This document shows positions 18,001 to 21,000 of a DNA stretch of 31,094 nucleotides, in pieces (the stretch's first letter is position 1; each line of letters begins with the position of its first letter). Made by a program: the position numbers. This DNA comes from a virus, in UHGV virus genome UHGV-0087733. One strand, written 5' to 3'.

Positions 18001-21000
18001 CCCTTTGTTGGGGTGTCGCCAGTACGTGTTCACGCTGGGCGGAAAAGGCAGGATCAGCTTCATACTTTCAGGCCCCTCTCATGTAACCAGTGGGCTGCAC
18101 GCAGCCTTGCGTTTTCCTCACCGGCAAGCAGTGAGCGGATAATCCCGACCGCCTCGCTGTCGTCGTCCTTCACCGCGGTATGAAGCGTGATGCCCCGGGC
18201 CACGCCACGCTTTATCGTGATGACGCCTTTTTTCTCCAGTGCGCGAAGATGCTCCACCGCTGCATTCACTGAACGGTATCCCAACATGGTTGCCACCTCC
18301 TGATTGGTTGGCGGGAAGCCACGTTCTTTCTGATAAGAAATCAGCATATCCAGCACCTGCTGCTGGCATTGAGTTAACGTCGTCATGCCGCCATCTCCCT
18401 GACCAGTTTTTCCGCCTGCTGGCGAACCTGCACCAGAAAGGCTTCACCACATGCCTCAAGTTCATCGCGCCCGATGTAGCTGATTGCCGGTCCCTTCCAG
18501 GTCTTGTCGAAAACAGCAATAGCACCAGCGAAGAAAGCGCCTGTCGGCACCTGCTTCTCATTCTTCGGGATAAACCAGGCAGGCAGTTCAAAACCAATAC
18601 GCCCGCGAATAAAAGCAATATGGTCCGCATCTTCCGGCCACCACACTTCGCTGGTGGCAGCTTTGATCAGGAAAACATAGCGCCCGCCCTTATCACGCAT
18701 GGCACTGGCATGTTTCATGATGTAACGCATGCCGGTGATGTATTGCCCCTCATGCTGACTGGCGCGGCTGTATGGGGGATTACCAAAGGCAGCACCTTTA
18801 AGCTCCGCAAGACGTTCTGACCAGTCATGCGCCAGCGCGTTATCTTCCGCCGTGTAATACGCGGCACATTTGGCGTTATCACCGTCAGTAAACAGATCCA
18901 GAACAAACGGGCCAAACAGGGTGTTAATTCCCCAGAAAATGTTGTCCGGCGTGCGCCACTGATCGCCCACTTCCTTCAGTTCATGGGCTGGTTTGTTCCG
19001 CAGTTCCACCAGCGCCTGGCAATATTTATTACTCATTAAGCCCCCACGTAATTCCCTGACAGATACCACTCTTCACCCGATGCAGCGCGCTTGCTGCTTT
19101 TCCGTAAGCACCGCTCACGACGCGCCAGAAAATTGTTTCGTTCTGGCTGGGAGTGGCTTTCACGGAATGCCGCCATCCACACGGTTGCAGCACGACGGTA
19201 TAAGCCCCTGGACTCCAGTTCTTCAGCCTGGCGGGTCAGGCACAAAATCACCCGTGGATCGTTAGTGCCGACATAGAAATTGCGCACAGGTCTGGTTTCT
19301 CGAACTGGTTGTGGTTCCGGTTCCTGCGCTCTCTCAGTCAGGCGCGGGAAATGTCTGCGTGTATCTCCTTCACAACGGTGAGCCACACGCCCACTCTGAC
19401 GTAACTTGCTTGCTGACTGCAGAACGCGCTGCCGTGAGTAACCTGCAAAAGCATCCGCAATGTCTCCGGAAGTACACCCCGGATGGGCTTCAATGAATTT
19501 CTGAACTTCATTCAAAAGACTCATGATCACCCCCTGAATCCTGCCGGGATCTGGCTGTAGTCCACGTTGTCGTAACTGGCTTTGAAGTACGGGTCCTCAC
19601 GTCTGGCTGCAGATACCGCAGGAACTTCCCAGGATTCTTCGAAATGACGATCCGGACCAAAGAACGTGACAGCCTGTTTCACAAATTGTGTGCCGCTGTT
19701 ACCCATCGCAGATACCCAACCCGCGTAGCGTTTCACACCTTCCAGCATGGTTTCGGGGTTTACCCCCTCATTCAAACGGGCTTTCCAGGCTTTGAAGGCT
19801 GCAGATTTTGAATTACCACCAGCACGTTTGGGATATGCCAGCCATGCCTGCTCAAACTCCGGAGAGTATTCCGGCCGGTTTGAACGAACTCGCACGGACT
19901 CATCAACTGATGCACCAACAGCTATTGGTTCATTGACTGGTTCTTTGACTGGTTCAAAAGAGTGACTGGTTCTGGGTGAATCTCCTGCACTACCCCCTGG
20001 TGCAACTCCTGCACTACCTGGTGAATTTGCTGCACCAGATAGTGAATTATTTGCACTACCCCCTAGTGAATCTCCTGCACCATCCAGATGAAGGAGATAG
20101 ATATTACTTGAGTTACCTTTTTCACCTTTCCGGGTGACTTTTTTTACCAGCCCGGACTCACAAAGGGCCGCAATATGATTCATCACAGAACGTTTGCTAA
20201 TCTCGCACTGGTCAGCAATATGCTGGTAGCTGGGCCAGCACTCACCCTGATCGCTGGCATTATCAGCCAGCTTGATCAGAACCAGTTTTCGCAATGGATT
20301 CCCCACTCGAATTTTCATCGCTTTAACCATCAGCTCCATACTCATGCTGCACCTCCGAGATGCTTCATGTTTTTTCCGGAGCGAAAGGCTATAAGCGGCA
20401 TACTGACGCGGTAATTACGGCCCAGCGGTTCACAAATCACCTTCTGACATTCACGGTCAACCAGGCTAACACGTAGAACATGCCCTGCAGGCGTGGTGTA
20501 CCACTGACCCGGACGAGGACAACGGAAAGTCTGATTGGTAAAACGTTTGAAAATATTCCGGATCATTTGCGCCCCCTTACCTCTGAAGGGTTCAGCGACA
20601 AATTTATGAGGCAGGCCAGCGCCGAAGCATCATTAATATAGTCATATAAGCTAACAGCCAGCGGAGATTCGGCTTTTGCCAACATAGGATAAAGCTGCTG
20701 CAGCCAGACCTGATGAATTGATGAAATGTAGGAACAGAGAACGCTGGCGTTATGTGCAACGTCGCTCGGTACAGCGGGCTTTGAAAGCTGTTTCTCCATC
20801 TGGTTAAAGGCATTGATGTATGCCTCTTTGAACTGGGCAGCACGTTTACCCGTGAACCCCATAGCAAGAAACGCAAAGCCGTCGCGGGTTATTTGATAGC
20901 AAGGTAGTTTGCGGCCTGTGCAATCGGTGTAATCACTCACCGAAAAATTGCGGGCAGTGAATGATGCGGAGCATTCAAGCGTGCGGATCTTTTTCAGTAC

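Follow-up and report, generated by a model that had tools for sequence, protein, structure and literature searches.

A candidate replication origin inside the initiator gene of an SfV-like lambdoid prophage

The virus genome UHGV-0087733 was analyzed as one stretch of 31,094 nucleotides, called the window throughout the text. Its replication initiator gene contains an array of five short direct repeats (iterons), which abuts a short conserved element (CE). Array and CE together form a candidate origin of replication, which is the subject of this paper. The features are listed below in gene order; all coordinates are those of the window.

19527–20345, minus strand: replication initiator gene, 272 amino acids, of the SfV orf39/Shiga toxin (Stx) phage 'Eru6' HTH_36 type; holds the entire candidate origin
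20082–20345, minus strand: N-terminal winged-helix domain, amino acids 1–88; presumed iteron-binding domain, with the predicted recognition helix at amino acids 51–64 and the wing at 67–85
20085–20135, no strand assigned: A+T-rich stretch in the wing-coding part, across the iterons from the CE; duplex of lowest stability around the array by the nearest-neighbour profile and alternative unwinding site
20066–20080, minus strand: iteron 1 (first in gene order), coding strand GTGCAGGAGATTCAC
20042–20056, minus strand: iteron 2, coding strand GTGCAAATAATTCAC
20021–20035, minus strand: iteron 3, coding strand GTGCAGCAAATTCAC
20000–20014, minus strand: iteron 4, coding strand GTGCAGGAGTTGCAC, with perfect 5-bp inverted arms
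19976–19990, minus strand: iteron 5 (last in gene order, abuts the CE), coding strand GTGCAGGAGATTCAC
19927–19975, minus strand: CE, about 47 bp, coding strand CC-AGAACCAGTCACTCTTTTGAACCAGTCAAAGAACCAGTCAATGAACC, with three GAACCAGTCA units (plus strand TGACTGGTTC at 19934, 19946 and 19963)
19530–19871, minus strand: C-terminal domain, amino acids 159–272; presumed contact with the helicase-loading machinery

First, the array itself was characterized. A preliminary description of the stretch had reported five linker-encoding repeat units, and these were recovered at the noted positions within 1–2 bases. Each of the five sites listed is an exact plus-strand match to GTGMA-N5-TGCAC, and the spacing from site to site is 24, 21, 21 and 24 bp, about two turns of the helix. 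Five sites were counted, or six if both strands are considered (iteron 4 matches on both), while 0 matches were found outside the array in the whole 31 kb. By chance a mean of 0.17 matches was expected, and the observed number was reached in 0 of 100 dinucleotide shuffles. Tandem Repeats Finder delimited the array to 19976–20080 with a period of 24 and 4.6 copies. Every iteron is an imperfect inverted repeat with 5-bp arms (GTGMA/TKCAC), and the flanking positions in relatives widen this dyad to about 19 bp (TRGTGMA-N5-TKCACYA). Read from the coding strand, the repeats are translated to GAGDSL-GGSANNSL-SGAANSP-GSAGVAP-GGSAGDSP, followed by RTSHSFEPVKEPVNEP, with all five iterons of the window in one codon phase and at distances that are multiples of 3. 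Two mechanical open reading frames (ORFs) at 19922–20056 (minus strand) and 19976–20137 (plus strand) have repetitive translations (..VVQEIH.., ..LVNLLH..). They are other-frame or other-strand readings of the iteron array and are best regarded as side products of the repeat array; in Pseudomonas and Shewanella homologues the same peptides are genuinely encoded in frame.

Beside the last iteron, TGACTGGTTC occurs in three exact copies on the plus strand (19934–19943, 19946–19955 and 19963–19972). The three short repeats of the preliminary description are present as TGACTGGTTC, while their rendering as three copies of TTGACTGGTTC was slightly off, since only the first two are preceded by T. With one mismatch allowed, TGACTGGTTC gave 3 matches in the window, which is not above chance (1.78 expected). 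The significance of this repeat derives from the comparison with relatives and not from its copy count. Neither a second repeat array nor a second copy of the CE was found in the 31 kb. The Rfam scan returned no family overlapping the repeats, and the promoter and terminator scan yielded nothing informative on the origin.

In order to separate conservation of the DNA from conservation of the encoded peptide, the gene was compared with about 60 relatives, which belong to at least ten gammaproteobacterial genera. The comparison set consisted of 56 loci from a scan of species-representative genomes, to which named phages were added later. A scan of viral contigs seeded with the N-terminal alignment gave only identical Escherichia coli relatives and was useful for copy-number counts, not for diversity. 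Nearly every full-length relative showed the same layout: the N-terminus is near-invariant, helix 3 and the wing vary, 3–6 repeats and the conserved peptide PRTSHSFEPVNEP follow, and the C-terminal domain is variable again. The motif GTGMA-N5-TKCAC was kept in about 27 loci under very different peptides (Escherichia, Phytobacter, Leclercia, Pseudomonas, Shewanella, Marinomonas, Microbulbifer, Wohlfahrtiimonas and Aeromonas). A total of 108 motif sites in 23 loci represented 56 distinct combinations of phase and peptide, with 13 sites located in another codon phase. Sites in more than one codon phase were found in 18 of the 57 tabulated loci, belonging to several separate host-and-class groups. 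One internal copy is phase-shifted in Pseudomonas (L007–L012), Enterobacter/Phytobacter (L004/L005), Erwinia (L040), Shewanella (L035, L039, L046 and L052) and coliphage mEp044, and L019 likewise carries phase-shifted iteron copies. The spacing around such copies is 23+22 instead of 21+24, and 38+22 in L004/L005. In Shewanella L045, L048 and L049 and in Parashewanella L043 the reading frame differs over the last site and the adjoining first half of the CE.

Codon usage and the variation within single loci were analyzed as well. Alanine of the linker is encoded by GCA in 122 of 145 codons (84%), compared to 72 of 447 (16%) in the rest of the genes (p-value of 6e-51), and the linker contains no GCC, GGC, AGC or TCC codon. 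Inside any one locus, variation affects the 5-bp spacers and the linkers between sites; the half-sites stay the same. These comparisons indicate that selection acts on the iteron DNA and not on the encoded peptide. The preliminary description had proposed to weigh the repeats against coding constraint in homologues. The motif proved to be kept from Escherichia to Pseudomonas, Shewanella, Vibrio, Aeromonas and Aggregatibacter despite differing peptides, and the lack of any DNA-level conservation across homologues, which had been named there as speaking against an origin, was not observed.

The number of iterons is variable. Counted in the DNA it is 5, 6, 7 or 8, with 5 in 77 of 80 close relatives and 8 in phage cdtI, while E. 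coli protein variants imply numbers from 1 to 9 (1, 2, 5, 7, 8 or 9 peptide repeats). Prophage alleles of E. coli that are otherwise near-identical (P0001–P0042, cdtI L058, L060–L139) differ by whole iterons and by GAACCAGTCA units (2–5). Allele P0040 is without the last iteron and the CE and allele P0036 without the wing of the DNA-binding domain; both are probably from decaying prophages. In locus L019 (Pseudomonas bharatica CSV86; nucleotides 353–400 of the gene) a 1-nucleotide deletion before the last iteron shifts the CE out of frame and ends the protein at 133 amino acids, with the DNA elements of this apparent pseudogene still intact.

The initiator protein matched Pfam HTH_36 (PF13730) at amino acids 17–67 (E-value of 1.8e-11, 44.1 bits versus a cut-off of 25) and PHROG 270, 8540 and 391, labelled 'replication initiation (O-like)', with an E-value of 1.7e-88 for PHROG 270. 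The AlphaFold2 model gave a winged helix with good confidence, reaching values of 77–92 in the predicted local distance difference test over amino acids 1–90, with helices at 3–11, 17–28, 40–47 and 51–64 and strands at 67–73 and 79–85. Amino acids 91–158, which are exactly the repeat-encoded part, were predicted to be disordered. The C-terminal domain matched PHROG 26426, 3729 and 1701 ('replication protein' and the C-terminal part of 'DnaD-like helicase loader'), and no Pfam or NCBIfam match was obtained for it. The DnaD N-terminal domain (PF21984) scored 24.3 bits, under its cut-off of 27. Foldseek with the AlphaFold model found generic winged-helix folds only, none of them significant (no E-value below 1e-3), with the DnaD N-terminal structure 2v79 (E-value of 0.03) among many others. 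The fold search links the initiator to no particular initiator family.

The term 'O-like' of the preliminary description holds for the function and for the PHROG label; similarity to lambda O was not detectable. BLASTP of the window initiator against lambda O gave nothing significant, and BLASTP of the C-terminal type that is partnered with a P gene gave no match to lambda O either. Of the phage O N-terminal models, PF04492 did not match the window initiator at an E-value of 0.01 or below and TIGR01610 did not at 1 or below, while lambda O as control in the same NCBIfam run matched TIGR01610 at 5.4e-39. Membership in the lambda O family was ruled out by the absence of sequence similarity and of matches to the O N-terminal models.

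We then compared the predicted recognition helix (helix 3) with the iteron sequences. In every tabulated locus with callable sites the class of helix 3 predicted the class of the site, with no exception. The pairs are given below.

Helix 3 S[KR]R[ST]V[MIVQ]xH: site GTGMA-N5-TKCAC
Helix 3 S[KR]R[ST]V[MIVQ]xH with Arg at window position 55: site GTGAC-N5-GTCAC
Helix 3 xRSTVKxH (including Eru5 phage Stx2a_F403): site GGGGCRG...CTGCCCC
Helix 3 DRSTVR[KR]H: site TGTAGGCC...
Helix 3 x[HK]S[TSA][VA]RxH: site RTGCC-N7-RGCA

The Arg-55 rule was seen in four genera, Erwinia, Vibrio (D186), Escherichia (coliphage mEp044) and Arsenophonus (a phage-plasmid), with the second arm of GTGAC-N5-GTCAC partly degenerate in Vibrio D186 and Arsenophonus. 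The dyad symmetry is particular to each site class and fits the recognition helix, and each iteron class is paired with several C-terminal clusters and partner genes. The concerted change of all copies in a locus is what a cognate pair of protein and site would predict. The natural helix/site pairs, for example Asn versus Arg at position 55 with GTGCA versus GTGAC, may serve as a ready-made specificity code for winged-helix initiators.

While the iterons change from class to class, the CE hardly does. CCAGAACCAGTCACTCTTTTGAACCAGTCAAnGAACC lies directly after the last site in all site classes, and most columns of the element are at least 90% identical in 47 loci. Given the same amino acid, codon identity is 90.6% in the CE versus 45.5% in the almost invariant codons 1–48. 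The CE of the window differs at 1–2 of 35 positions from the compared Shewanella, Pseudomonas and Xenorhabdus loci, whereas the third positions of codons 1–48 are only 33–56% identical in the same comparison. In L043, L045, L048, L049, mEp044 and Arsenophonus the CE is in other frames, and the AACCAGTCA units persist in mEp044 and Arsenophonus. Viral contigs chosen solely for the presence of a CE had a matching N-terminus in frame upstream in 112 of 120 cases; the remaining 8 were truncated, frameshifted or had a variant start. Within this sample the CE was seen solely alongside this initiator family. The three TGACTGGTTC repeats do not form a second set of variable iterons but belong to an element that is near-invariant across the specificity classes.

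Compared to the locus mean, the G+C content of the CE is 12–14% lower and that of the iterons 8–10% higher. In 17 of 48 loci no 40-bp window within 1 kb on either side is less stable than the CE. As single-stranded DNA it forms no stable structure and no hairpin. A second dip of 5–7%, which bears on the A+T-rich stretch at 20085–20135, was visible in the averaged G+C profile between -170 and -91, counted from the CE. In this stretch bordering the iterons, at 20122–20146 on the plus strand and antisense to the initiator gene, there is a hairpin that resembles a terminator and has a T-run (TCACCTTTCCGGGTGA CTTTTTTTAC). The hairpin may be a chance product; the regional count of such sites does not exceed the shuffle expectation.

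From these properties the CE is a candidate unwinding or helicase-loading element. A more specific proposal, which we put forward tentatively, is that the CE (AGAACCAGTCACTCTTTTGAACCAGTCAAnGAACC...) is a sequence-specific cis-acting origin part common to a large gammaproteobacterial family. It might be read by the near-invariant residues 1–48 of the initiator or by a conserved replication factor of the host, and the form that is recognised might be single-stranded. If so, the element would be common to the family whatever the iteron specificity, the C-terminal domain or the helicase loader. It would act as a universal 'loading pad', unlike the merely A+T-rich flank of the lambda origin, and would offer a common target for blocking the replication of Eru5 and Eru6 Stx phages. 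As it stands, the CE is strongly constrained DNA overlapping a coding region.

Considering the sequence data as a whole, positions 19927–20080 of the window very probably constitute the replication origin of an SfV-like lambdoid prophage, located within its own initiator gene. The preliminary description had suggested a lambda-like origin embedded in this gene, and that suggestion is supported by the conservation of the motif, the codon phases, the codon skew, the match of helix and site and the lambda-like layout. Dimers of the N-terminal winged-helix domain would bind each site and build a complex resembling the lambda 'O-some'. The bound complex would open a flanking A+T-rich stretch, and the C-terminal domain would recruit the replicative helicase. 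Regarding the site of unwinding, the CE with its GAACCAGTCA repeats is the better candidate family-wide, while in the window the stretch at 20085–20135 is equally plausible. Because a PerC-like gene replaces the IstB/DnaC-like loader of relatives, the phage of the window presumably uses the DnaC and DnaB proteins of the host. Because the gene lies in the rightward early operon, derepression would both produce the initiator and transcribe through the origin.

Several points weigh against this interpretation. Experimental evidence of binding, unwinding or autonomous replication in the initiator family was not found in the searchable literature. The protein stands outside the lambda O family, so the analogy to lambda is architectural. 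The argument from frame independence rests on the relatives, with the window's own five sites being in a single phase. With about 200 bp at most between the iterons and the helix-3 codons, part of their co-variation is what linkage alone would produce. Finally, the CE of the window shows moderate instability only, ranking 72 of 2000 windows, and a less stable stretch lies on the far flank, so that either flank may be the melting site.

Three other explanations were weighed against the origin. The CE might be a conserved recombination joint at which N-terminal/iteron and C-terminal/partner modules are swapped, maybe also constrained by a useful peptide, and not a site of unwinding or loading. 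Its position coincides exactly with the boundary at which the N-terminal/iteron classes have been recombined with C-terminal clusters, of which there are at least 7, and with partner genes of 4 or more types, and the peptide PRTSHSFEPVNEP is conserved in most loci. Yet the CE remains almost identical across genera whose third positions in codons 1–48 have diverged, which implies continuing purifying selection or very frequent conversion. Its DNA is also kept where the peptide is not, and its position, its A+T-richness and the absence of secondary structure fit an origin flank. We regard a joint in place of an origin element as unlikely; the two roles are compatible and not mutually exclusive.

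A slightly less probable explanation is that the sites are bound by the initiator or by another DNA-binding protein but act as intragenic operators, in autoregulation, as a transcriptional roadblock or in copy-number 'handcuffing', with the true origin elsewhere. Iteron-binding initiators of plasmids do also autoregulate, and the comparative data represent a DNA-level signature of binding sites, not the firing of an origin itself. However, the 31 kb hold no further array or CE, the conserved A+T-rich element always follows the array, and helicase-loader genes adjoin it. Moreover, the layout fits an origin better than an operator located 265 nucleotides inside a coding region.

That the repeats are just a low-complexity Gly/Ser/Ala linker, expanding and contracting by slippage without any function of the DNA, is highly improbable and already contradicted by the comparative sequence data: the window's five copies are in one frame at multiples of 3, copy number varies among near-identical alleles and the encoded segment is predicted to be disordered, but the half-sites are invariant under variable spacers and peptides, other-frame copies occur in several separate host-and-class groups, the codon bias is extreme and the class-specific dyad symmetry is matched to the recognition helix.

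The replication origin proposed here is part of an early-right lambdoid operon with the order cro-like, cII-like, Rha/Ash, a 74-amino-acid ORF, initiator, PerC-like, Dam, a protein with a LexA DNA-binding domain and RusA. The Rha/Ash ORF is found at 20563–21714, and a cI-like repressor gene at 22613–23305 is divergent on the opposite strand. The operon corresponds to the Eru6 type, with a Rha-family and an HTH_36 protein first in the operon diverging from cI and near-identity to the Eru6 representative Stx2a_WGPS2 (AP012537; 98.4% DNA identity over the whole gene). The DNA of the initiator gene is about 98–100% identical to that of SfV (orf39), mEp460, cdtI and Stx2c/Stx2a phages. Among 5426 complete E. 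coli genomes searched, 2717 gave a match to the gene and 897 contained most of it.

Rfam identified a C4 antisense RNA at 21166–21253 (minus strand, 83.6 bits) and an isrK Hfq-binding RNA at 21278–21354 (minus strand, 67 bits). Both are inside the 5' part of the mechanical ORF of 383 amino acids at 20563–21714, in which the Rha/Ash matches begin only at about amino acids 61–117; the start of the real Rha/Ash protein is probably further downstream than that of the ORF. The C4/isrK locus, just upstream of the replication gene, resembles the c4-controlled antirepressor module of the P1/P7 type.

Downstream of the initiator gene the relatives carry an IstB/DnaC-like ATPase (20 loci), a homologue of lambda P (PF06992, Pfam E-value of 3e-58; 14 loci), an unknown protein (7 loci) or, in 2 loci, a large protein resembling a primase-helicase by eye only. 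The C-terminal cluster of the window type stands beside an IstB/DnaC-like gene in 12 of 16 relatives. Directly downstream of the window initiator no P-type helicase loader was found; the next gene is PerC-like. In the window, SfV and mEp460 the loader position of the relatives is occupied by this PerC-family (yfdN-like) regulator (19036–19530, minus strand, in the window), and therefore the replication module of the window consists of a single protein.

The initiator module is also present in phage-sized circular records without any other typed replicon. One such record is the E. coli plasmid NZ_CP148393 (L268), circular and 44.6 kb in size. The record of Arsenophonus nasoniae pArsFIN11 (L267; MOB-suite type rep_cluster_2302) begins at the initiator gene, and nine further circular Arsenophonus records also carry the module. 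These circular records may be phage-plasmids or excised phage genomes.

A description of this origin was not found in the searchable literature; a prior mention in the SfV genome paper or in the review of Weigel and Seitz is possible. The analysis offers a precise candidate origin for a very common prophage replication module. SfV, mEp460, cdtI and Eru6-type Stx2 phages all carry this module and Eru5 has a related one; the toxin dose there is driven by phage replication. Given that no similarity to O is detectable, the design of an origin inside the initiator gene may have arisen independently of lambda.

Related arrangements are known from other replicons. In iteron theta plasmids (RepE, pi, TrfA) a winged-helix initiator binds direct repeats beside an unwinding element with short direct repeats of its own, and in Bacillus phage SPP1 (G38P/oriL) the sites lie inside the initiator gene. 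Among the generic winged helices that Foldseek retrieved were RepA_N initiators and the DnaD N-terminal domain, neither of them as a significant match. Unlike the origins of iteron plasmids, the region between 17655 and 21723 contains no DnaA box (TTATNCACA with up to 1 mismatch).

The Stx phages 933W and P27 have lambda-type origins with six iterons, the extra iterons lengthening the protein, and synonymous mutations of the iterons were the decisive test (PMC7466680). These phages encode true O homologues with lambda-type iterons, whereas the window carries an 'Eru6' replication unit; both families are polymorphic in iteron number among close relatives. The Eru6 representative Stx2a_WGPS2 shares with the window the gene order of Rha/Ash followed by the HTH_36 gene, and the Eru5 representative Stx2a_F403 has a related initiator with 3 x GGGGCAGGAGCTGCCC and the CE. 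Eru typing classifies gene content only; the word 'iteron' is absent from both Eru papers, and the passages found there with 'origin' do not concern a replication origin (PMC8951638).

The closest likeness is to ori-lambda. In both systems the origin is located mid-gene in the initiator, in the part coding for the linker between the domains, and both origin families have 4–6 sites of 18–19 bp with internal dyad symmetry at a spacing of 20–24 bp. Lambda has four sites spaced 20, 24 and 23 bp at nucleotides 349–433 of 900, and the window five, spaced 24, 21, 21 and 24 bp, at nucleotides 266–370 of 819. The lambda iterons occupy three codon phases, and the sites of some relatives of the window are likewise in different phases. 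Lambda O combines an N-terminal specificity domain with a C-terminal domain for partner contact, and the initiators of the window family presumably do so too. In lambda an A+T-rich stretch follows the iterons; family-wide, G+C dips by 12–14% after the last iteron, and in the window itself the dip is modest, with a less stable stretch on the other flank. A loader gene of the lambda P type lies downstream in 14 relatives, as in lambda, while the phage of the window has no P-like or DnaC-like neighbour. Differences concern the half-sites, GTGMA/TKCAC in the window versus TCCCTC/GAGGGA in lambda, and the flank of the iterons, which is a sequence-conserved element with 10-mer direct repeats in the window versus merely A+T-rich DNA in lambda. 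The origin of the window probably works like ori-lambda without belonging to the ori-lambda family.

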